Shown here piece by piece: positions 1 to 29,614 of a stretch of DNA of 64,000 nucleotides. Source of the stretch: a virus; the IMG/VR virus record IMGVR_UViG_3300028772_000011, positions 29,275-93,274 of that record; one strand, written 5' to 3'. Numbering within the stretch: the first letter of the stretch is position 1; the number at the start of each line of letters is the position of its first letter. The translations under genes and the position numbers were made by a program. A model generated the notes under the pieces. It was not told the origin of the DNA. It searched no databases and saw nothing but the letters and a program-made list of their open reading frames with translations.

Positions 1-16
1 ATTAAATAATTAAAAA

Positions 17-391
17 ATGATTGAAATTGAATCAGGACATTATTATTATTTTGACCTAAATAAAATTAACGATTGGATTTTTAACAACCAATCAGATATA
101 AATTTTATTGAAACTAAAGAATATACTTACACAAAAGAAAATGGGGGCATTGGTACAGAAATAAGTCATAATGAAAATAATACATCAAAGCAGATGTATT
201 CAAATACAAGGTTTGAGTTGTTGACTGACATGCTTAATTCACTATTTACCTTAACTTCAGAAAGCGACAACAATGGTGTTAAATTTATACAAAATACAGA
301 AGATTTAGGTATTGGAAATAAAATTATTTTTAATACACTAATAGAAAATGAATTTGTAGTTGATAAATTAGGCTCAAAAAAGAAAAAGTAA
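17..391 (+). CDS. hypothetical protein
   Basis: 124-aa ORF with A-rich leader, tightly packed with downstream genes. Confidence 0.7.
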   Translation: MIEIESGHYYYFDLNKINDWIFNNQSDINFIETKEYTYTKENGGIGTEISHNENNTSKQMYSNTRFELLTDMLNSLFTLTSESDNNGVKFIQNTEDLGIGNKIIFNTLIENEFVVDKLGSKKKK

Positions 392-393
392 AT

Positions 394-993
394 ATGGAAG
401 CAGAAGAAATTGAAAGAATATACGGAGAAAAAATATTCACTGAAGTCGAATTTAAGGATTGGAAATCGCCAGAGAATACCAGTTATGAAAATACAGTTGG
501 AATTGTAAAAGCAGAGGCGTCTGACTCTTCACCAGCATTTAAATTTGGGTTTGTTGGTAAGACACCTGAATGGATTTTCAAAAATATTATTGATAATACG
601 AACTCAGTACATAAAAAAATTAATGTTGGTACAGTACAATCAAATCACAAAGAAGACCACATTGATTGGCAAGATAAAAAAACTGGATTCAGCTATATGG
701 ATTTCAATGCTTCAACAAACACATTTATAGTAGCACTTACCGTATGGTATGCATTTTATATTGAAACAGGTTATTCGTATAGAGAAATGCAAAAGTTTTT
801 CGCTGAACAAATGAAATATCATTTTAATATAGTACCAGATAATATTACAATGTTAAGTCATATTATGGATGAAAAGGTTAGGTCATATAAACCAGATAAA
901 ACTAAAGTACTCACAGAAATGGAGAAATTAAGACAGGAACTAAATACAGTAACAGATAAACTAAATAAATTAAGTAATAAATATAATAAATAA
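394..993 (+). CDS. hypothetical protein
   Basis: 199-aa ORF; stop overlaps next ATG (TAATG). Confidence 0.7.
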   Translation: MEAEEIERIYGEKIFTEVEFKDWKSPENTSYENTVGIVKAEASDSSPAFKFGFVGKTPEWIFKNIIDNTNSVHKKINVGTVQSNHKEDHIDWQDKKTGFSYMDFNASTNTFIVALTVWYAFYIETGYSYREMQKFFAEQMKYHFNIVPDNITMLSHIMDEKVRSYKPDKTKVLTEMEKLRQELNTVTDKLNKLSNKYNK

Positions 994-2261
994 TGGATAA
1001 TAAAGTAAAAGAAATCTCAGAAAAAATAGAAGATGCGATTGGAAAGTTAAAAGATAAAAACTTTACGATCAATTTTTTTATTATTGACACAAAAGGAGTT
1101 CCAAATGGTAATACTCGATACATCTACGAAACAGCAAAAAGTTTGATTGATAATGAATATAAATGTTTCATGCTATATCAACAAGAAAAAGAAACGGTTC
1201 AATTTACAGTCCTCGATGTAGTAGAACCACCTCACAAGAGACAAAACGGTGATTGGGATGTTGTTATCAGAACAAAATTAAATGATGAATTTATTGACAA
1301 ACAGAAAATAGGCAAAGAGATTGACATTAAAAAACATAAAATCGGGTACGTTTGGGAAGAAGAAATTGAAGTACCTTTTATTGGTGTTCGCAGTTGGATG
1401 GGTGATGAATTTGCAGATATTGCTCATGGAAGTATCGGTGGTGATACAATTAAAATTTCAACATCTGATTTTTTAATTATTCCAGAACTGTTTGCAAATG
1501 TAATGAGCCAGACAAGTAAACTACCTTGTAAACGAATTGTTTTGTGTCAAAATTTAAATTATATTACAGAATTTATTTCTCTTGGTAGTTCATGGATGAG
1601 CTATGGTATTAGTGATGTAATAACCACAACTGAAACCCAAGCCGAAGAAATTAAGGGATTATTCCCATATATTAGCACAAAGGTTATTAATCCTTCCATA
1701 CCAAGTTTTTTCAGGAATAATACTGAACCTAAAAAAATTGTAATATCAACCGTAATTAAAGATGCTTCGTTATTAAAAAAATTAGTTAATCAATTTTATT
1801 GGAAATACCCACAATACAGTTGGGTTACTTTCATGGATTTAAGAAGTCTAAGTAGAGAATCATTTGCTAATACACTTAGAGAATCTGCTATTACAGTTTG
1901 GGTAGATGATGAAACATATTTTGGCCATGCGCCAGTAGAAGCAATTAAATCAGGTAGTATTGTTATTGGAAAAATACCAGATACAATACCAGAATGGATG
2001 TATTTGGATGATAAATCGGATATTTCAACAAATGGATTATGGTTTGATAATTTTAGGGATGTACATAAGCTTATTGCTCAAGCGATTAAACTTTGGCTTG
2101 ATGATGAAATACCAGCAATTGTAACAGATGAAATGGTAAAAATGACAGATAAATATTCAGATGAAAGTAAGGAAGTTCAACTTTTAAACGCATTCAGAGA
2201 ATATACTTTAGAACGAATTACAGAATTAACTGAAATTAAAAATAAAATTGAAAATAAATAA
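993..2261 (+). CDS. GT-B fold glycosyltransferase (GT4-like)
   Basis: N-terminal GNTRYIYE..KSL, DFLIIPE, and C-terminal ETYFGHAPVEAIKSGSIVIG resembling the E-x-F-G-x-P-x-E-A GT-B motif. Confidence 0.7.
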   Translation: MDNKVKEISEKIEDAIGKLKDKNFTINFFIIDTKGVPNGNTRYIYETAKSLIDNEYKCFMLYQQEKETVQFTVLDVVEPPHKRQNGDWDVVIRTKLNDEFIDKQKIGKEIDIKKHKIGYVWEEEIEVPFIGVRSWMGDEFADIAHGSIGGDTIKISTSDFLIIPELFANVMSQTSKLPCKRIVLCQNLNYITEFISLGSSWMSYGISDVITTTETQAEEIKGLFPYISTKVINPSIPSFFRNNTEPKKIVISTVIKDASLLKKLVNQFYWKYPQYSWVTFMDLRSLSRESFANTLRESAITVWVDDETYFGHAPVEAIKSGSIVIGKIPDTIPEWMYLDDKSDISTNGLWFDNFRDVHKLIAQAIKLWLDDEIPAIVTDEMVKMTDKYSDESKEVQLLNAFREYTLERITELTEIKNKIENK

Positions 2262-2263
2262 AA

Positions 2264-3064
2264 ATGGAAGAACTTACGATTATAATCCCAATTCATGAAT
2301 TTAACGAAACCATTGGGAACTATTTAGCAAGAGCAATTCAAAGTGTTGAAGCGCAAACAGAAAAACCAAGTAGTATCCTAATTGTCGGTCCAAAAGGGGT
2401 ATTGGGTAATATTAAACAGTTGGACGATAATTTGGTTAGTGTGAATTTAGTTGAGAATAAAGGAGAAACAGACTACTGTTCTCAAATAAATTTAGCTGTT
2501 AAATCCGTCGATACAAAGTATTTTTCAATTCTGGAATTTGATGATTATTATCAAAAAAATTGGATTAAGAATGTTAATATATATACAAAATATAAACCAG
2601 ACTTTTCTATATTTTTACCAATTTCAAAATTTGTAGATGTTAAAGATAATGAAGTTTGTTTGTCGAACGAAATAATTTGGTCACTATCGTTTACAGACAC
2701 ACTTGGTGTTATAGAACCAGATATTTTACAGTCATATGGTGACTTTTCAGTACCAGGTGGTGTTTTACGAGTAGATGATTTCATTGAGGTAGGTGGGCTG
2801 AAACCATCAATCAAGTTATCTTTCTGGTATGAATTTTTATTAAGAGCATCAAACAATGGTGTTAAAATATTTGTAATTCCTAAGACTGGGTATGTACATA
2901 CTATAGAACGTAAAAATTCTTTAATGAGTGAGTATATTGAAATGCCTGAAAAGGAAAAATTATTCTGGATTGAATTAGCAAAAAAAGAATATTACTTTGT
3001 TAATGAACGAGTAGACAAAGCAAAATATATCGAAAAGAAAAAACTAACTGAAATAATTAAATAA
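2264..3064 (+). CDS. glycosyltransferase family 2 (GT-A)
   Basis: LTIIIPIH...RAIQSVEAQT, INLAV, ILEFDD (DxD-like), FIEVGG. Confidence 0.8.
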   Translation: MEELTIIIPIHEFNETIGNYLARAIQSVEAQTEKPSSILIVGPKGVLGNIKQLDDNLVSVNLVENKGETDYCSQINLAVKSVDTKYFSILEFDDYYQKNWIKNVNIYTKYKPDFSIFLPISKFVDVKDNEVCLSNEIIWSLSFTDTLGVIEPDILQSYGDFSVPGGVLRVDDFIEVGGLKPSIKLSFWYEFLLRASNNGVKIFVIPKTGYVHTIERKNSLMSEYIEMPEKEKLFWIELAKKEYYFVNERVDKAKYIEKKKLTEIIK

Positions 3065-3065
3065 T

Positions 3066-3491
3066 ATGAGTGAAATAGGTAAAATGTCACCAGAAGCTAT
3101 TCGATCATTTAATAAAAAAGATATTAATAAATGCATTAAAAATTGGGCACAACTCGGATTTAACAATGGTCTATCTGAACCACAATTAACAAATGTGTCT
3201 ATTGCATTCGAAACAATGGACAGTATTTTATTAAATTCATTTACTAATCAATACCAAACCGAAATTGGGTTACTTGTATTTCCAATAGCAAGACGCATTT
3301 TTCAAAAAGTAGACCATGAAATTACGATTGGTGTTATAGTTGATAATTCAATTACTCTAATAGATGAACTCTCAAAATCTTACGTAGAAAGCATAACAGA
3401 AGATTTTATTGCTCAAAGTAAAAAATTCAATATCGACTATGAAGCGGAGTTTTGTGCTGTGTTTTCGGAAAAATATAAATTAAACCTTTAA
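3066..3491 (+). CDS. mini-paralog of the major capsid protein (gp23 N-terminal segment plus spine-helix segment)
   Basis: KNWAQLGFNNGL..FE..VFPIARRIFQK matches MCP KRWDALGFTEGL..FE..VFPMIRRVFSK; NIDYEAEFCAVFS matches MCP NIDAEAELTAVLS. Confidence 0.75.
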   Translation: MSEIGKMSPEAIRSFNKKDINKCIKNWAQLGFNNGLSEPQLTNVSIAFETMDSILLNSFTNQYQTEIGLLVFPIARRIFQKVDHEITIGVIVDNSITLIDELSKSYVESITEDFIAQSKKFNIDYEAEFCAVFSEKYKLNL

Positions 3492-3496
3492 ATTAT

Positions 3497-3532
3497 AAAT
3501 GTCAAGTATTCGACACTGTTTACTTGACATTT
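3497..3532 (+). terminator. hairpin / putative intrinsic terminator
   Basis: AAATGTCAAGTA / TACTTGACATTT 12-bp inverted repeat followed by T-rich tract. Confidence 0.55.
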
Positions 3533-3553
3533 TATTTCTTATCAAACTAATAA

Positions 3554-3621
3554 AGCATCGGCATAAGATGTTCAAAGAACATAGCCAAATAAAGCGTAAT
3601 AACCTTACGGAAATAGATGTT
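3554..3621 (+). ncRNA. candidate three-way-junction cis-regulatory RNA in the leader of the late sigma-like gene
   Basis: P1 AGCATC/GATGTT, P2 GGC+ATGTTC/GAACAT+GCC, P3 CGTAA/TTACG; locally GC-enriched. Confidence 0.4.
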
Positions 3622-3656
3622 GCAAAAAAAATAATATTTTTTACAACAAGTATAAA

Positions 3657-4391
3657 ATGGCTAAACGAGGAAGACCCCCGAAACCGAAAGAAGAACGCAC
3701 TGGATTCTACTTCTATACCGATGAAGAAAATGCTGTAGTAGCATATATAAAATCAAAGTCCAGAAAAGAAAAGAATGATATATTTAAAACAATATTAGAA
3801 GTTCCATTTACTAAAATGATTGAATCTATTATTAGGAGATACTTCAAAGATAATATAACTCAAGAAGATTTTCAAGTATATTTTAATGATACTATGGGTC
3901 ATGTAATTGAAAAGATGGTATTATATGATAAAAATAGATGTAAAAAAGCATATTCATATATTGGAACAATTGTTAGAAATTACGTATTAAGTAGATTAAT
4001 TGACAATAGAAAGGCATTATTAAGAGATGCTCAATTTGATGATTTATCAGATGAATTAAATGAGGATATTAATTATTCTTATAATATTAGTGATCACCAT
4101 AATTCAGATATGACTGAAATTATAGATTTAACAACTTCAAAGATAAATGAATTATTGATGGATGGTAAACAAAAATTAATTTATAATGAGATGTTAGTTG
4201 GCAAGGCGTTAGTCGAATTAATGTCAAACTGGGATGAGGTATTTACAGACTTAGGTTCAAATAAATTTAATAAAAGTTCCATTTTATTTTATTTAAAGGA
4301 AACGACTAATTTATCAACTAAAGAAGTTAGGAGTTCAATGAGAAAGTTTAAGACGATATATAATAAAACTAAAGAAATTGTTTATGCTTAA
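3657..4391 (+). CDS. sigma-factor-like protein, candidate late-transcription sigma (T4 gp55-like)
   Basis: region-2-like KMIESIIRRY...YDKNRCKKAYSYIGTIVRNY; basic N-terminus; upstream of structural genes. Confidence 0.55.
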   Translation: MAKRGRPPKPKEERTGFYFYTDEENAVVAYIKSKSRKEKNDIFKTILEVPFTKMIESIIRRYFKDNITQEDFQVYFNDTMGHVIEKMVLYDKNRCKKAYSYIGTIVRNYVLSRLIDNRKALLRDAQFDDLSDELNEDINYSYNISDHHNSDMTEIIDLTTSKINELLMDGKQKLIYNEMLVGKALVELMSNWDEVFTDLGSNKFNKSSILFYLKETTNLSTKEVRSSMRKFKTIYNKTKEIVYA

Positions 4392-8249: not shown

Positions 8250-8261
8250 TATTTTTTAAAC

Positions 8262-8269
8262 TATTTATA
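8262..8269 (+). promoter_or_regulatory. putative late promoter TATTTATA
   Basis: 15 nt before ATG 8285. Confidence 0.6.
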
Positions 8270-12558: not shown

Positions 12559-14364
12559 TTAACGGAATTCGTTAGTTGACCATTTTTGTAAACCATCAAC
12601 ATGAACCTGACCATAGAACTTGTTATTAACCACTTTCTTAGCGTAACGAGTCATAATGTATTTAATCGGTGCTCCACCGTTAAATGGGTTGTACATCAGT
12701 GGAGAAAGTGTTAATGGAATATATGGTGCATAAATGTAACCAGTATCCATCAAACTCTTACCGTGGTGACCAATTATAATAGAATCAGAAGGAGAATATG
12801 GGTCAACATATACTTGGTAACGGTTTTGTAACGAACCGATACGTTCAATTCCTAAATTGTATTGATCAGATTCTGCAGAAGCATCAGATACGTGGAAATA
12901 CTCCAAGTTATTGAATACGGCAGAAATTTCAGTACTTACAACTACGAAGTTAGCTGCACCTTGAAGAGTTGATTTTTGGATTTGACCAGAAATCTGGTTA
13001 ATCTTAGTAAACAATTCTTGGTTCCAGTCTTTTTGTGTATAGTTAGTTGAAAAACCAGTGATTTTTCTCCATCCGTTTACATCAAATTTCAATTGCCAAG
13101 GAGCAACAACACGAAGTTCACGAAGAATTTCACGGTCAATTTCAGCAGCAACTTGTTGAGAAAGTACAGCTGTCAATTCAGCTTCAGCATCAATGTTCTG
13201 GAAAACAGCAACATCCTGAGCCATTTCTGGTGACCAAGTAGCGCGCAATTTACGTTCTTCAACAGAAATAGTCAAAGAATCTAAAGTTACACCAACTTCA
13301 CCAATCTCAGTATCCAATTCAAGGGTGTCATAAGTAGCCCAACCAATTTTAAATGTGCTTGCATCAACAGTATTTCCAGAAGCAACTCCTGCATAACCAT
13401 CAACTAAATTACTTGCACTTGGTTTAGTTAAATCAACTTCCAAATAAATAGCACCAGTAGCATCACAAACGTTGTTACGTTCAACAATACCCTTACCATA
13501 TTTCTGAGTCATTACGCGATAAAGAACAGGTTCACCAGCAGCAAACGAAGTTGCACCAGTCAAAGTTTTTCCGTCCCCCATTACAACTTTTAAAGAAGCC
13601 AAGAAGCTTTCAGTATCCATTTCATTACCATCAGCACCAGTTAATTTACCAGCTCCGTAGCTATTAAATCCAGTTACTTTTAAAACAACGTGACGAAGAG
13701 TACCATCAGTTGCAAGAACGTTTGTAACGTTAGTTGCACCAGTTACATAATTTCCATCAACATAAGAAACAGGAGCAGCAGTACCCATTTGTAAATGTAC
13801 TTTACCCTTAGAGTTATCATACAAGAAATCATCATAGAACAAGTCATATAAAGATTTTGCATAATTAGTAGTAATACCAGAAGCATCAATCTGAACTCCA
13901 GGAACATAACCACGAACTAAATCAGCACCAGAAGCATTACGGTCACGTAAATTTGCACCCATCATACCTTTATGAGATCCAGTCAAACCACTAAGAATTC
14001 CTTGTCCATCACCTTCCCAAGTTCTTTCGGAAGTAACAGGACGTAAGAAGAATACTTTACCAATTGACATATTCATTGCCTGTACAGATACGATATCATT
14101 AGCCAGCAATTTACTGAACACACGACGTATCATAGGGAATACAACTGTTTCAAATGAACCACTATTACTAGAGTCAGTTGTTTCTTTCATTATTTGTCTA
14201 GCCGTGTTTTCAAACAGCGTCGAAATGGTTTCTTTCTTATGTCCCTCAAGACCTTCTGTAAAACCAAGCGCATCCCAACGTTTCGATACTTCTTCACGTA
14301 AACGACGTTCTTTATCCAATTCGATATTACCAACTTTACCGCTGGCCAAAAATTCTCTAATCAT
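12559..14364 (-). CDS. gp23: major capsid protein (T4 gp23-like)
   Basis: IRRV..LLANDIVSVQAM, RKLRATWSPEMAQD, IDAEAELT, AEIDREI, GYIYAPYIP, MTRY. Confidence 0.96.
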   Translation of the reverse strand: MIREFLASGKVGNIELDKERRLREEVSKRWDALGFTEGLEGHKKETISTLFENTARQIMKETTDSSNSGSFETVVFPMIRRVFSKLLANDIVSVQAMNMSIGKVFFLRPVTSERTWEGDGQGILSGLTGSHKGMMGANLRDRNASGADLVRGYVPGVQIDASGITTNYAKSLYDLFYDDFLYDNSKGKVHLQMGTAAPVSYVDGNYVTGATNVTNVLATDGTLRHVVLKVTGFNSYGAGKLTGADGNEMDTESFLASLKVVMGDGKTLTGATSFAAGEPVLYRVMTQKYGKGIVERNNVCDATGAIYLEVDLTKPSASNLVDGYAGVASGNTVDASTFKIGWATYDTLELDTEIGEVGVTLDSLTISVEERKLRATWSPEMAQDVAVFQNIDAEAELTAVLSQQVAAEIDREILRELRVVAPWQLKFDVNGWRKITGFSTNYTQKDWNQELFTKINQISGQIQKSTLQGAANFVVVSTEISAVFNNLEYFHVSDASAESDQYNLGIERIGSLQNRYQVYVDPYSPSDSIIIGHHGKSLMDTGYIYAPYIPLTLSPLMYNPFNGGAPIKYIMTRYAKKVVNNKFYGQVHVDGLQKWSTNEFR

Positions 14365-14410: not shown

Positions 14411-15712
14411 TTAATATTTATCCATTTTTCGCATTAACTCTTGCATCTTAACCATATCAGCATTTTGATATATAACTTTTTCATTGATAACCTTACTACC
14501 TTCTGCGCTAAATTGCTTATCAATTGAACTATTACTAATAACTTTTCCATTTAATTCTCTTTGAATAGTTTCGAAAAGTAAGTTACCAGCTTCAATAGAT
14601 TTAGCCTCACTTGCAAAACGATTTAAAATAACTGCTTTTTCATCTTTAGTTGTAGAATTTTCGAGAATTAACTTTACGAATTTTCCAAGACTATTATTTA
14701 GTACTGCATTTTCTTTTAATTGTCCAACAAATTGACCAAGCGCACTTTTCAATTGAACCATTTCGTTTTCAGTTGATTTCTTAAACGACTCATGTTGTTC
14801 AGTCAAGCTATTAATTTTTTTAGTGTATGCGATTTTAAGAGCTTTTACTTCTTTACTTTCACCAACTAATTGACCACCGTTTCTTTTATTAGCACCAGGA
14901 GCATTTGCAGCCCTTGTTTGCGATAAAACACCAGCACGTCTATTAACACTATATGATTGAGTTATATTTTTTTCATCAACTAATCCTTCGCCAGCGGCAT
15001 CTGGACCAACCTCAGGTTCGTTTTCTTCCGATAATTCGGTTTCATTCCCCTCATAACTATGATGCATCCCTTCGGATACAACGGGTTCATCATCTAAGTC
15101 AATTTCAATTTCTGGGTCTAAATCAGCATCAATACTAGGATCTACATCCGCACCAGCCGATGGGGTAGTATCAATCATATATTCTGCGCCAGTCTCATTG
15201 TCATTGAGTTCGATCTTTCCATCACCCAAATCTGTAATGCTTACTGAATCATTTCCATCAATGCGTTTAAACACTTTGATTAATTGACTAGTATCTGCAC
15301 CTGTAAGGTCATACTCACCATCATCCGATTTAAATTGATCAATGTCAAAATCTTCTTCTTCGCCTGATTCCAAATCTGAATCCACATCAGCGCCATCTAC
15401 ATCTACGTCAACATCTACGTCAGCGTTATCAGTTTCTGGTTCTTCTACTTCTACATTATCCAATCCGCTTTCGGTTGAATCGGTATCTTCCACACCTTCA
15501 ATATCTATATTATCACCATTCACGTCATCCGTTTCAGCATCCTTATCTGGATCTTCTTCTTCAAATGCTTCGGTCATATAATTTTTAAGTCCTTTTTTAA
15601 CAGCGTTTTCAAAAATAGTATTCACTGTATCTTCACTTGTTTCTTTTAAAAAGGTTTTCATTTTTTGTAGATCCAGAAGTGCTTCTTTCACGCTATCATT
15701 TTTTTCACTCAT
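14411..15712 (-). CDS. prohead core/scaffolding protein (gp22-like)
   Basis: highly acidic with coiled-coil C-terminus; directly upstream of MCP; many (I/L)xE sites. Confidence 0.75.
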   Translation of the reverse strand: MSEKNDSVKEALLDLQKMKTFLKETSEDTVNTIFENAVKKGLKNYMTEAFEEEDPDKDAETDDVNGDNIDIEGVEDTDSTESGLDNVEVEEPETDNADVDVDVDVDGADVDSDLESGEEEDFDIDQFKSDDGEYDLTGADTSQLIKVFKRIDGNDSVSITDLGDGKIELNDNETGAEYMIDTTPSAGADVDPSIDADLDPEIEIDLDDEPVVSEGMHHSYEGNETELSEENEPEVGPDAAGEGLVDEKNITQSYSVNRRAGVLSQTRAANAPGANKRNGGQLVGESKEVKALKIAYTKKINSLTEQHESFKKSTENEMVQLKSALGQFVGQLKENAVLNNSLGKFVKLILENSTTKDEKAVILNRFASEAKSIEAGNLLFETIQRELNGKVISNSSIDKQFSAEGSKVINEKVIYQNADMVKMQELMRKMDKY

Positions 15713-15902: not shown

Positions 15903-16541
15903 TTATTTATTTATTAAATTATAGTAATATTGTGTTTTTTTAATTCTATCTTCTAATCCATTTGGTATTACACTTGAATTAACATTACCTACATTTATAG
16001 CTTTTGATAATAACGTAATCGATTTTTCATCTACCCCTTTAGCATATTTCCAAAGGTTATTTGTATCAAAGAAAAATTTTGCTGATTCAAATGGATATTT
16101 TGTTGCTATTAAACTTGGATTGTTTTTTACTTCTGGGTCTTTAATGTATGTCGCAAATGCAACATGATTAATTTTTCCAGTTAATTGAATTGGGCCAACA
16201 CCTTTGTGTAGCCAACCATCACCACTTGCTTCGTTACCATTACCCATTCTATTACAATAGACGTGGTTTGCTATCTTTTCTGGCTGCCTTTGAAATTCAT
16301 TAGCAGATTGAGTTGTAAAATACTTATGGAAGGTTGATAATAATGCGGCTGCTGAATAATTCAAGTTTTCATACAGTGATATAAATGAATTACTCTCGTG
16401 ATCACATTGACCCATAAAATTAGCCAGCTCTTCATTCGACGATATTTTATTAATCTCTTTTATTTTTAATAGTGTTATTTTACCTATTATTCCATCAGCA
16501 TCTAATCCATATTTTTTTTGAAAATCTAATATCATTCCCAT
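15903..16541 (-). CDS. endolysin, GH19 with N-terminal peptidoglycan-binding motif
   Basis: FQKKYGLDADGIIGKIT; FMGQCDHES, ENLNYSA, GDGW..KGVGPIQLTGK, GLEDR. Confidence 0.9.
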   Translation of the reverse strand: MGMILDFQKKYGLDADGIIGKITLLKIKEINKISSNEELANFMGQCDHESNSFISLYENLNYSAAALLSTFHKYFTTQSANEFQRQPEKIANHVYCNRMGNGNEASGDGWLHKGVGPIQLTGKINHVAFATYIKDPEVKNNPSLIATKYPFESAKFFFDTNNLWKYAKGVDEKSITLLSKAINVGNVNSSVIPNGLEDRIKKTQYYYNLINK

Positions 16542-16558
16542 AACTTTCTATGTGTTTT

Positions 16559-17563
16559 TTAAAATAAATTTATTGTATAATCTATATTATCTAAATCCTT
16601 TAATACCGAAGCTGCTTTTTCAACTTCGTTAACAAACAGATCAACATTCTTTGATAGCTCAGAAATACTATTTTCAACCTGAATAAAATGTTCATCATTC
16701 TGGTCGTATGCATATTCTGGTAGCCCCCAAATTGAATTAAGTGTTTTTCTTTTAATTAAATCAAAGCCTCTATTAGCCTCATCCGTTTCAACCATTATAT
16801 TATAGAAATTAGGATAAGACAATGTTTGGGTGTTAAAAAAAGCATTATATTTATTCTGTAATTCCAAGAACTTTTTACTATACTGTTGTAAAAACAAAGT
16901 ATTAATTTGAGGGACATCTTCATTGATAACCCTTCTAACGACATTTTCAATCAATGATTTTATATTTATATTTTCCATAATGAGGTCATTTTCTATTGCT
17001 AATTCTTTAATTTCTGTTTTATCGCTAGAATCGATTGAATCAGATGATAATAATGCTGACACAACTTCTTTCGTTACCAAACCACTCCTAAGTATTTCTT
17101 TAAATTTTTCAATATTATTTTCCACTAATATTATATTGTCAGAATCTGACTTAGCTAATGTTGCATTTTTAAATTTCGGATAAAAATATGGTATGTTATT
17201 GGTTTTTTTAAAATCATATATTTGACCGCATTTTATTTGAATAATATTTTCAATTGGAATTGATCTTGCAGCCCCTTGTATTCCATTAACATCGTATTGA
17301 GAATTATCTCTAATGAATAGTAAATCAAGATCACTCATTTTAACATCACGACTATTATTACTCTGACTTCTTTTGAGCATTGTATCAACATTCATTGTAG
17401 CATGAGTAATATTCCGCAATTCTCCTGTTGTTCTCTTCACAAACAATACAGAAAAATGTTGTTTTCCGTTAGCAATTTTATTCCATAATTCAACTGGGAA
17501 TATATGCCTGGAAAATGCTTCCGTTAAAGGTAATATGTCATTATTTTTTGCTGCGAGGATCAT
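16559..17563 (-). CDS. modular late protein with WYL_2/Sm-like domain
   Basis: FSVLFVKRTTGELR...RSIPIENIIQIK; internal IKSLIENVVRRVINE motif. Confidence 0.5.
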   Translation of the reverse strand: MILAAKNNDILPLTEAFSRHIFPVELWNKIANGKQHFSVLFVKRTTGELRNITHATMNVDTMLKRSQSNNSRDVKMSDLDLLFIRDNSQYDVNGIQGAARSIPIENIIQIKCGQIYDFKKTNNIPYFYPKFKNATLAKSDSDNIILVENNIEKFKEILRSGLVTKEVVSALLSSDSIDSSDKTEIKELAIENDLIMENINIKSLIENVVRRVINEDVPQINTLFLQQYSKKFLELQNKYNAFFNTQTLSYPNFYNIMVETDEANRGFDLIKRKTLNSIWGLPEYAYDQNDEHFIQVENSISELSKNVDLFVNEVEKAASVLKDLDNIDYTINLF

Positions 17564-18366
17564 TTAAGAATTTGTTTTAATAATAACTCTGGTATATTTT
17601 CATTAGTTGTACATATAGTATTCTTTTCATTATATATATTTTCAAACATTGGGGTTATCATCATATATTTTGTAAACTCAATTTTGTTTGTTACATATAT
17701 TAAATCAACCTTATTATCTTTACATAGTTTATTCTTTTTAATATCTCTACCAACATTTTTTATAAATCCAGTTTTTCCACCAAAATGTTCCATATGTGAT
17801 TCAAAATGTTGTTCTCCTTGGCACTCTATAGCTATTTTATAATCGGGTAAATAAAAATCTAAGGATTGTCGTCCAAGCCATCTAAATTTTTTCTGTTCAA
17901 TATATTCAATTTTATTATCCGTTAAAATTTTACCTATAAATACCTCTATTTTACTTTTTATTTTGCTACATTCTGGGCATCCGTGCTTCTCATTTGTATG
18001 CTTATTAGGCATTTGCCAGAATTCTCCGTGTATTGGACATATTATACATACAGGTAATTTGCTATGGGTATATTCAACTTTAGAATAATCATATTTATCT
18101 CCATGAACTAATATTGCATTTTCAATAAATTTATCTCTGGTTAATCTAATTGTGTTACCTCTTCTTTCGTTATAACACATTTGACAATCATTTATTTCGT
18201 TTTTACAAACTAACCAATTTGGTTTTGACTCCCAAGTATAATTGTGTATTGTACATTTAGCTGTTATGTATTTTTTATTTCCATTATATTGAGAAAGTAC
18301 TACCAAATGCGGCTTTATTATTTTAAGTTGTTCAACAAATTGTTCATGTGTAATTTTTGGCGGCAT
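17560..18366 (-). CDS. free-standing endonuclease: 2 zinc-binding (DUF723-like) repeats plus PD-(D/E)xK/Vsr-like domain
   Basis: HGDKYDYSKV..CPIHGEFWQ..GCPEC; QSLDFY..IAIECQGEQH. Confidence 0.8.
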   Translation of the reverse strand: MPPKITHEQFVEQLKIIKPHLVVLSQYNGNKKYITAKCTIHNYTWESKPNWLVCKNEINDCQMCYNERRGNTIRLTRDKFIENAILVHGDKYDYSKVEYTHSKLPVCIICPIHGEFWQMPNKHTNEKHGCPECSKIKSKIEVFIGKILTDNKIEYIEQKKFRWLGRQSLDFYLPDYKIAIECQGEQHFESHMEHFGGKTGFIKNVGRDIKKNKLCKDNKVDLIYVTNKIEFTKYMMITPMFENIYNEKNTICTTNENIPELLLKQILK

Positions 18367-18401: not shown

Positions 18402-19124
18402 TTATAAAATACTTTTAGTTCCAAGAAAATAATTTAAACCCTCCAATATTTTTCCTTTATTATTTTGTTTTGATTCTACGTATTGTTTTAAATCATCCTG
18501 ATTATCAGCCAAATATGCACCTGGGGTCGATGGCGAACAAACAAAATCCCAACAGGTTATTTCAAAATCATCCTGTACAATATATTTACCAGTGAACTTA
18601 TCTTGTTCCACTGAACCAAGGCCTCTTGAAGAAATACCAAGTTTCCACCCAAGTCTTAAATAATTAGCAATTTGATCACCTTTGCAGGAAATAATTCCAT
18701 AGTTAATAAATCCTGGTGATAATATTAATTCAAGCTCACCAAATAATGTTTTATTTTCCCACCATAACTTATTGATACCGAATGCTAAACGGTCAAGATC
18801 TAAATTTATAGATTCTGGATGATTTGATTCGCCATACGACATCCTTTCATCAATCATTTTTTGATAAAGTTCAACTTGCTTCATTAATACGGATTTCGGA
18901 TATATCCTTCCGTTAGCATTTTCACAATTATACTTCTGTAGAATTGCATATACTTTCAATCTATCAACGATTTTAACTCCAGGTTCTTTACTACCAATCT
19001 TATTCAATTCAGTCCTTGCGTCCGAATTTCTTTCATCTCCTAAGTCGATGAAACCCCCATCTCTCTCGATTAAAATCCCGTATCCTTGATTGTTTTTCTT
19101 TATTTCGAATAGTTCTGAAGCCAT
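18402..19124 (-). CDS. gp21: prohead core protease (T4 gp21-like)
   Basis: NANGRIYP, GESNHP, GISSRGLGS, WDFVCSPSTPGA. Confidence 0.93.
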   Translation of the reverse strand: MASELFEIKKNNQGYGILIERDGGFIDLGDERNSDARTELNKIGSKEPGVKIVDRLKVYAILQKYNCENANGRIYPKSVLMKQVELYQKMIDERMSYGESNHPESINLDLDRLAFGINKLWWENKTLFGELELILSPGFINYGIISCKGDQIANYLRLGWKLGISSRGLGSVEQDKFTGKYIVQDDFEITCWDFVCSPSTPGAYLADNQDDLKQYVESKQNNKGKILEGLNYFLGTKSIL

Positions 19125-19140
19125 TTTAACTTATTTTTCA

Positions 19141-19148
19141 TATAAATA
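19141..19148 (-). promoter_or_regulatory. late promoter TATTTATA
   Basis: 16 nt before protease ATG. Confidence 0.6.
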
Positions 19149-19197
19149 GATTTAATTTGATAAATAACTGTATTTTTTAAAAATAATTTACTTAAGT

Positions 19198-27912: not shown

Positions 27913-29614
27913 TTTCTTTTAATTTTATTATATCGTTAATTTTATTAATTAATTCTTGTTCATCAATATATACTTTATCTATATAGTCAATTATATATTT
28001 TGGGTTTTCATATGTAAAATATAATAAATTGACATTATTCTTCTTACATAAATTATTTTTTCTAATATCTCTTTCTCTTACTTCTGAAAATCCTTTAGCT
28101 CCACCCCAACAATTATTTTCATCAAAATGTTGCCTTCCATGATATTCAATAGCTATATCATATTCTGTTAAATACATATCAATACTTTGAGCCCTTAACC
28201 ATTTATCTCTAAATTGGTATACTAAATTATAGTTTTGAAAATTATCTCTAATAATAGATAATAATTTTTGTTCAGATATATCATTTTTTGAAGCACACTC
28301 TGGACAATTAGATCCTCTCAAATGACTACTTGGTATTTGCCAGAATTCTCCGTGGATTTGGCATATAATACATATTTTAGTTGATGAGTTAACGTAATTT
28401 ACTTTTGAATAATCATATTTTTCCCAACGCGCATTTTTTAGCTTTTTAACGTATTCAGTAGTTTCCATTTTATTACACTCTGAACACCCACAGCCTTTAA
28501 GGTGAACTTCTGGTGTTTGTGTAAAATCTCCGTGTTTTAAGCAAGTTATTATAACAGTGGTGTGTCTGTCAACATATTCTACTTTTGAATAGTCATATTT
28601 ATTTCCATGAATCAATTTTGCTTTTGTTATAAATTTTTCATTTGTAAATCTTAAAGCATTTCCAACTATTTCACCTGCACATTTAGGGCAACCTCCACCT
28701 CGCAAATGGCTATTTGGTAGTTGCCAAAATTCACCATGAACTGGGCAAATAATATATACTTTTAAATTCCAATTAATATATTCTGTTTTTGAGTATATAT
28801 ATTTTTCACCATGAATTAATCTTGATTGTTCTATAAACTCATCACTTGTCTTACTATTTTTACATTTTATACACCCCAAGCCATCTAAATGTTTCTTAGG
28901 CTTCTGTTTAAAATCACCATGTATAGGACAATTGATTATTACTGGCGTTTTGTTGTCAACATATATTACTTTAGAATAATCATATTTATTTCCATATATT
29001 ATTTTGGATTTTAAAATGAATGATTCTGTTGTTAAAACCCCATTTGCGCATTTAGGGCAGCCATGTCCAAATGAATGATTTGCAGGTAATTGCCAAAATT
29101 CCCCATGTTCAGGACATATTATACAAATTTCAGTAGTTGAATTAATATATGTAACTTTTGAATAGTCATATTTATTATTATGTATTTTAATTGATTTTTC
29201 TATAAATTCATTAAAATTTAAAGCTAAAGAATTTGTTTTAGTACAATTAGGACATCCGAAACCCTTTAAATGGTCTTCTGGTTTTTGCAAAAACTCACCG
29301 TGTTCTGAACATATTATAATTACAGGGGTATTTTTATCTACATATTTAACCTTTGAATAATCATATTTATTTTTATGTATCTCATTAGCTTTATCCGAAA
29401 ACATTTCAGTAGTTGGTACATTGTGGCCGCATTTAGTACAATTATTACCGTTTAAATGATTGTTTGGTAATTGGTAAAATTCACCGTGTATTTTACATAT
29501 AATACAAACATGTTTTTTACTATTAACATAAACTACTTTTGAATAATCATATCTATCTCCATGAATCAGTATAGCTTTTTCGATAAATTCCTCTCTTGTT
29601 AATTTTTTAGGCAT
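27896..29614 (-). CDS. free-standing endonuclease: 7 zinc-binding repeats plus PD-(D/E)xK/Vsr-like domain
   Basis: seven ~62-aa YDYSK..CxxHG(E/D)FxQxPxxH..CxxC repeats; QSIDMY..IAIEYHGRQH. Confidence 0.85.
   Translation of the reverse strand: MPKKLTREEFIEKAILIHGDRYDYSKVVYVNSKKHVCIICKIHGEFYQLPNNHLNGNNCTKCGHNVPTTEMFSDKANEIHKNKYDYSKVKYVDKNTPVIIICSEHGEFLQKPEDHLKGFGCPNCTKTNSLALNFNEFIEKSIKIHNNKYDYSKVTYINSTTEICIICPEHGEFWQLPANHSFGHGCPKCANGVLTTESFILKSKIIYGNKYDYSKVIYVDNKTPVIINCPIHGDFKQKPKKHLDGLGCIKCKNSKTSDEFIEQSRLIHGEKYIYSKTEYINWNLKVYIICPVHGEFWQLPNSHLRGGGCPKCAGEIVGNALRFTNEKFITKAKLIHGNKYDYSKVEYVDRHTTVIITCLKHGDFTQTPEVHLKGCGCSECNKMETTEYVKKLKNARWEKYDYSKVNYVNSSTKICIICQIHGEFWQIPSSHLRGSNCPECASKNDISEQKLLSIIRDNFQNYNLVYQFRDKWLRAQSIDMYLTEYDIAIEYHGRQHFDENNCWGGAKGFSEVRERDIRKNNLCKKNNVNLLYFTYENPKYIIDYIDKVYIDEQELINKINDIIKLKENAKNN

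Follow-up and report, generated by a model that had tools for sequence, protein, structure and literature searches.

A free-standing partial paralogue of the gp23-type capsid protein in uncultured giant phages, possibly an auxiliary head-assembly protein

What is the role of a piece of capsid protein that a giant phage encodes as a separate gene, outside its head-gene cluster? The gene that raises this question occupies positions 3066..3491 (+) of the 64,000-nucleotide stretch of DNA analysed here (the window), which is part of a 93-kb viral record estimated to be 27% complete, so that the genome should measure ~340 kb. It runs from an ATG at 3066 to a stop codon at 3489-3491 and codes for a protein of 141 aa (16.1 kDa, pI 4.9), hereafter the mini protein; the reading frame and length given in the original prediction were exact. 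Its start codon lies 1 nt after the stop codon of a gene for a family 2 glycosyltransferase (GT2). A strong terminator-like hairpin with a U-rich tail follows directly on its 3′ side (3497..3541, +; 12-bp stem, −14.5 kcal/mol, z −5.0), so that the transcription unit ends with this gene. The unit comprises six genes, a 198-aa ORF, then four ORFs that include glycosyltransferase-like genes, and finally the mini gene. Just before the window, at L026:9598-9690 (G000 ~28,600-28,690), another terminator-like hairpin is followed by an AT-rich, promoter-like stretch, which is probably where this unit begins. When the mini protein, its family and ten neighbours were searched against Pfam and PHROGs, the sole match was GT2 on the upstream gene, and the 244-aa gene beyond the terminator (3657-4391, +) had no match in either library.

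The head genes of the window lie elsewhere, on the − strand. The parent of the mini protein is a gp23-type major capsid protein (MCP) of 601 aa (12559..14364, −; Pfam Gp23, E 1.1e-67) that aligns to the solved structures of T4 gp23. It is ~80 residues longer than T4 gp23, and its N-arm and E-loop are separated by a large, beta-rich insertion (residues ~115-345) with a weak hint of CBM_35_2 (E 0.084). Directly upstream of the MCP gene is the gene of a probable scaffolding protein of 433 aa (14411..15712, −), assigned by position and composition only, as the PHROG search gave no match; its helical C-terminal part is preceded by ~200 residues of low complexity that are extremely acidic and include runs like DVDVDVDVD. 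A T4 gp21-type prohead maturation protease is encoded at 18402..19124 (−; phrog_207, 6.5e-35). Three genes at 15903-18366 (−), an endolysin/chitinase-like gene, a 334-aa gene of unknown function and an HNH homing-endonuclease gene, separate the protease gene from those of the scaffold and the MCP and break the usual T4 order 21-22-23. A candidate late promoter, the box CTATTTATA, has exact copies at 8261-8269 (+) and 19141-19149 (−), which lie 16-25 nt from the start codons of ORF 8285 and the protease gene on their 5′ side; the scaffold gene and ORF 4429 are preceded by boxes that resemble it. Boxes of this kind thus stand 5′ of some structural genes, although window-wide they are not enriched over shuffles, and the promoter scan found none on the + strand of window positions 1-3900.

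The relationship between the two proteins is clearest at their N-termini. Residues ~14-85 of the mini protein (3105..3320, +) form a module homologous to the propeptide helices and first N-arm helix of the MCP (residues ~24-89), with the motifs W27, GF..GL, E49 and FPxxRR at 72-77; in the alignment, mini residues 18-85 face MCP residues 21-89 (14098..14304, −), which include VFPMIRRVF. By BLASTP, mini 25-82 and MCP 28-86 are 31% identical (E 6e-7), and the Smith-Waterman score against the N-terminal MCP segment was 79, a value reached by none of 1000 shuffles (mean 30, maximum 52). A profile-profile comparison of 45 family members with 16 MCPs using hhalign gave a probability of 98.4% and an E-value of 5e-15. 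Moreover, the family profile matched six further MCP N-termini from unrelated records, those of Microcystis phage Mel-JY01 (2.9e-9), LR756508.1 (5e-8), Flavobacterium phage immuto (1.8e-5), Rhodothermus phage RM378 (2.6e-4), Salicola phage SCTP-2 (1e-4) and PA5oct. The N-terminal match to the MCP of the window that had been proposed from the letters alone is therefore upheld.

The original prediction had also described a second match, roughly 300 residues further along the MCP. BLASTP reported one that is collinear with the first (mini 81-136 to MCP 349-404, E 0.003), of which the extension into MCP 349-388 is filler; the true match covers ~15 residues, mini 121-135 (NIDYEAEFCAVFSE) against MCP 389-403 (NIDAEAELTAVLSQ), at 60% identity. 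What stands of that claim is the place, the start of the MCP spine helix; the match is weaker than the N-terminal one (hhalign P 0.0013; 2 of 1000 shuffles reach the pairwise score). Nevertheless, an HMM of the family C-terminus found the same spine-helix start in six of eight diverse MCPs, at 9-14 bits, scoring above all 200 shuffles in five of them and above all but one in the sixth, and in EJP2 and XaC1 this C-terminal motif was the sole match of the family profile. The motif, NIDYEAEFCAVFSE(K) at residues 121-136 (3426..3473, +), contains D124, E126 and A127, which are nearly invariant in the family, and follows the pattern of the spine-helix start, (I/M)D-A-(E/D)-A-E-L; the counterpart of mini 120-136 is MCP 388-404 (FQNIDAEAELTAVLSQQ; 13153..13203, −). 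Between the two matching segments, residues 86-120 (3321..3425, +) form a family-specific helical hairpin (H88-109 and H112-120, from AlphaFold2) with no counterpart in MCPs. It stands in place of ~300 residues of insertion domain and E-loop, so that the predicted absence of the intervening MCP domains was correct, the HK97 body being missing from the mini protein.

Could the resemblance be due to chance, or the gene be a decaying, non-functional fragment of a capsid gene? The C-terminal match taken alone, with its 15 residues and a P of ~1e-3, is short enough to invite this reading, and the original prediction had itself named an alignment no better than shuffled controls, or homologues decaying under neutral evolution, as grounds for giving up the idea. 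The results speak against both. Besides the shuffling result and N-terminal E-values of 1e-7 to 1e-15, an exhaustive search at E<=1e-3 returned at least 51 cluster representatives, all of 116-216 aa and with no full capsid protein among them; they are intact ORFs of similar length, present in one copy per genome. The gene is also kept in a collinear relative, metagenomic contig L004, which is syntenic with window 1-10.7 kb and whose mini protein is 38% identical to ours (neighbours, 38-62%), and the protein is predicted to fold with high confidence (see below). Chance or decay is so improbable that we consider this reading refuted: the mini protein is a genuine paralogue of the capsid protein, partial but conserved, and a gene remnant is excluded.

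The family is acidic (median pI 4.9), and some members are extended, P0041 by ~75 aa at the C-terminus and P0045, P0026 and P0048 by 50-85 aa at the N-terminus; the extension of P0045 is hydrophobic and may reflect a mis-called start. Its conserved positions (W27, G31-F32, E49, F72-P73, R76-R77, D124, E126-A127-E128 and S134) are the residues that are invariant in the MCP clade, and the invariant polar residues among them, E49, R76/R77, D124, E126, E128 and S134, are identical to the MCP-invariant ones. Since the conserved charged sites barely vary in the family, pairwise covariation among them is uninformative, and synonymous sites are saturated because even the closest homologue is only 47% identical. 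A tree of the N-terminal domain separates all MCPs from all mini proteins and is thus compatible with a single origin, even though the split itself is without support. The mini proteins are not nearest to the MCPs of their own phages, and their branches are several-fold longer, that is, they evolve several-fold faster than the MCP N-terminus. This tree, with the two groups apart and long mini branches, suggests one old duplication followed by fast divergence, rather than recent or repeated copying.

AlphaFold2 modelled the mini protein as a compact all-helical globule of seven helices (pLDDT 92.9, pTM 0.86). As the model has no strands, the protein does not have the HK97 fold, and the A and P domains, E-loop and full spine helix of HK97-fold MCPs are all missing. 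Database searches pointed to no described family: no Pfam or PHROG family fits the mini protein, the Pfam Gp23 model being matched by one of 45 family members (E 0.064) and not by this one. A PDB sequence search gave no match, Foldseek found nothing in the PDB at E<=0.001, the best hit of a VIA fold search (Z 5.6) was within noise for helical models, the only match in BFVD was an uncharacterised Myoviridae protein, and the ESM Atlas yielded nothing usable. The full MCP was modelled too poorly for the packing to be compared in three dimensions (pLDDT 47.8), and only the helix pattern of its N-terminus and spine helix agrees with the mini protein. The confidently predicted fold of the mini protein may show how the N-terminal region of gp23 packs on the spine helix in the prohead state.

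Such a stable, capsid-derived bundle could have been reused as a scaffold for an unrelated job, the shared residues serving to keep the fold and the partners of the capsid having no part in it. Most of the shared conserved residues are indeed hydrophobic or able to form internal salt bridges, the middle third is new, some members have gained N- or C-terminal extensions, and the genomic context is not conserved beyond close relatives. However, all eight conserved polar positions are the ones invariant in MCPs, after deep divergence, which exceeds what fold maintenance usually asks for. We therefore hold a job unrelated to the capsid to be unlikely, if a possibility to be reckoned with.

The known structure of T4 gp23 gives these residues a possible meaning. 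MCP VFPMIRRVF aligns with T4 VMGMVRRAI (gp23 residues 95-103), so that the T4 counterpart of mini FPIARR is VMGMVRR. In the unexpanded T4 head, gp23 residues 66-105 are disordered and directed inward, where they probably touch the gp22 core, and the head-length mutations A94V and G97S lie in the VMGMVRR motif (PMC9546572). Moreover, Met98 clusters with His282 and Met284, just before DADAEL (PMC9546572), and the two "distant" segments are thus neighbours in three dimensions.

The N-terminal module of the capsid protein bears the presumed maturation site. In the MCP clade this would be [L/M/I]-x-E61, with E61 invariant, accompanied by L50-x-E52, and both agree with the LxE rule of cleavage in T4-type proheads; in the MCP of the window IMKE would, from its sequence, be the site cleaved. 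Opposite IMKE the mini protein has LLNS, as had been pointed out, and the aligned site is absent from 41 of 45 family members, the other four having such a triplet at this place, while opposite L50-x-E52 the mini proteins carry [A/S/G]-x-E. Most of them lack the aligned site and would therefore not be released as the capsid propeptide is. To call the protein non-cleavable, as in the original prediction, is nonetheless too strong, as it retains three [L/I]-x-E triplets elsewhere.

Stand-alone copies of the gene were found only in uncultured phages of ~320-480 kb. The complete 339,898-bp genome IMGVR_UViG_3300028666_000022, which has terminal repeats, carries it ~196 kb from the MCP gene, and further copies are on a 323-kb contig and on the 484-kb LR756508.1. 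When the complete genome was searched with the MCP, only the MCP gene itself and the mini gene came up, with no gp24-like vertex paralogue at E<=0.001. The mini gene was not detected in eight cultured T4-like phages (Mel-JY01, immuto, RM378, T4, SCTP-2, PA5oct, EJP2 and XaC1), a six-frame search of the whole T4 genome with the family found nothing, and 50,697 phage records searched by tblastn with four members of the family returned only LR756508.1 itself and no cultured phage. The last four of the eight are jumbo phages with gp23-type MCPs, so large heads do not require the mini protein, which weakens the idea of a giant-head factor. Outside the collinear contig, the gene stands in different neighbourhoods in the other relatives, including the complete genome, a variable position more typical of accessory genes. 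The family is undescribed, fast-evolving and, so far, seen only in uncultured giant phages.

A free copy of the capsid N-terminus in an accessory-like position might be aimed at the host. In T4, the factors that deal with the gp23 N-terminus are EF-Tu, with the Lit protease acting via the Gol peptide, and GroEL. A host-directed mimic, the decoy of the original prediction, would bind a host factor, or a defence sensor, of the nascent capsid N-terminus and, lacking the remainder of the capsid protein, block or titrate it, a reading we judge quite unlikely. It draws on the reports that the T4 gp23 N-terminus directs fusion proteins to GroEL (PMC3012670) and that ~100 N-terminal gp23 residues bind EF-Tu stably, Gol, the trigger of Lit, being a region of 29 residues with a 20-residue core and the most conserved of gp23 (PMC3014915). 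The mini protein retains exactly the motifs invariant in MCPs, is patchily distributed and evolves fast, and its gene sits in a movable, accessory-like position beside glycosyltransferase genes; the position and the fast evolution keep a decoy under consideration. The original prediction had set VFPMIRRV at the start of the T4 Gol region, and the alignment given above agrees with this; as a Gol mimic, however, the mini protein is incomplete. Its similarity to the MCP ends at MCP 86-89, whereas the T4 alignment of the presumed Gol-equivalent stretch continues to MCP 111. The resemblance therefore stops ~12 residues into that stretch, and the most conserved MCP segment, which comes next (LLANDIVSVQAMN), is absent from the mini protein. 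Also against a host target, the Pfam, PHROG and PDB sequence searches gave no match, the promoter scan gave no early promoter or timing signal, and the literature searched reports no phage capsid-mimic decoy. That the mini protein is a non-assembling capsid mimic occupying a sensor or factor that reads the nascent capsid N-terminus, Lit/EF-Tu-like or other, strikes us as distinctly unlikely. If this were true, it would be the first phage-encoded capsid decoy, and any host-directed role would amount to a new anti-defence principle.

We incline, tentatively and at somewhat less than an even chance, to an auxiliary role in head assembly, in which the mini protein would be a minor core or scaffold partner, or a modulator of nucleation or size. 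The gene descends from an ancient partial duplicate of a gp23-type capsid gene and encodes a soluble, acidic, all-helical globule. It has kept the helices of the propeptide, the N-arm's first helix (FPxxRR) and a cap helix that corresponds by homology to the spine-helix start (DxEAE), whereas insertion domain, E-loop and the entire HK97 body are lost. On the capsid protein, the three pieces kept would form the side that looks into the prohead and, before cleavage, meets the scaffolding core. A free mini protein would present this face and would therefore act in head morphogenesis. Its partner would be the scaffold or core, or else the clustered N-termini of the capsid proteins, and it would serve as a minor component of the core or scaffold, or compete with the capsid protein and so adjust shell nucleation and size. 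The probable scaffold of the window (14411..15712) is its proposed partner; a complex prediction of the two scored 0.03 against a mark of 0.32, which is evidence neither way. By analogy, a small, acidic, helical and fast-evolving protein is what minor core and scaffold proteins tend to be. Against an assembly role stand the location outside the head-gene cluster, at the end of a unit with glycosyltransferase genes, the accessory-like variable position, the distance from the MCP gene (~196 kb in the complete genome), the lack of the gene in four cultured jumbo phages and, again, the fast evolution; the shared residues may also keep only the fold, and the partner would then be a different one.

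Capsid-gene duplicates are known as whole-fold paralogues, for example T4 gp24, and we came across no report of the scaffold-facing N-terminal module alone being conserved as a free-standing copy. Were the assembly role true, giant T4-type phages would possess an accessory head protein of a new kind, which would give a handle on the dialogue between the gp23 N-terminus and the core and on how head size is set. Either way, the family offers a model, small and well folding, for a part of the capsid that structural studies have struggled with, as it is disordered in the T4 unexpanded-head structure (PMC9546572).

Among known systems, the closest is the N-terminal propeptide and N-arm of gp23 itself (PF07068 proteins), with which the mini protein shares the motifs W..G..GL, ..FE.. 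and FP/MG-x-x-RR and a helix pattern equal to that predicted for the MCP N-terminus; unlike it, the mini protein is free-standing, closed by its own spine-helix start and without the HK97 body, and most members lack the aligned LxE. With the Gol peptide of gp23 the likeness is partial, as mini FPIARRIFQK aligns with the beginning of the T4 Gol region, of which only the first dozen or so residues are present, and the host here, probably a member of the Bacteroidota, is not E. coli. The minor prohead core proteins gp67 and gp68 of T4 are likewise small head-assembly proteins, gp68 also having 141 aa and gp67 being conspicuously acidic. However, their genes lie in the head cluster, unlike the mini gene, and an hmmsearch of T4 gp22, gp67 and gp68 with the family profile gave no meaningful match, gp67 scoring <7 bits and gp68 ~0.5 bits, neither along its length. 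The vertex protein gp24 of T4, a full-length paralogue of gp23, is likewise a capsid-gene duplicate kept for a specialised role, but it retains the whole HK97 fold and builds pentons, whereas the mini protein retains ~85 + 15 residues and cannot tile a shell. Finally, the delta domain of HK97 and T5, a scaffolding domain fused to the capsid protein, is likewise helical and N-terminal and does its work within the prohead, and the mini protein could be seen as a module of this sort that has become independent. Delta domains, however, are part of the capsid chain until the protease removes them, whereas the mini protein is the product of a separate gene, alongside a dedicated scaffold gene.
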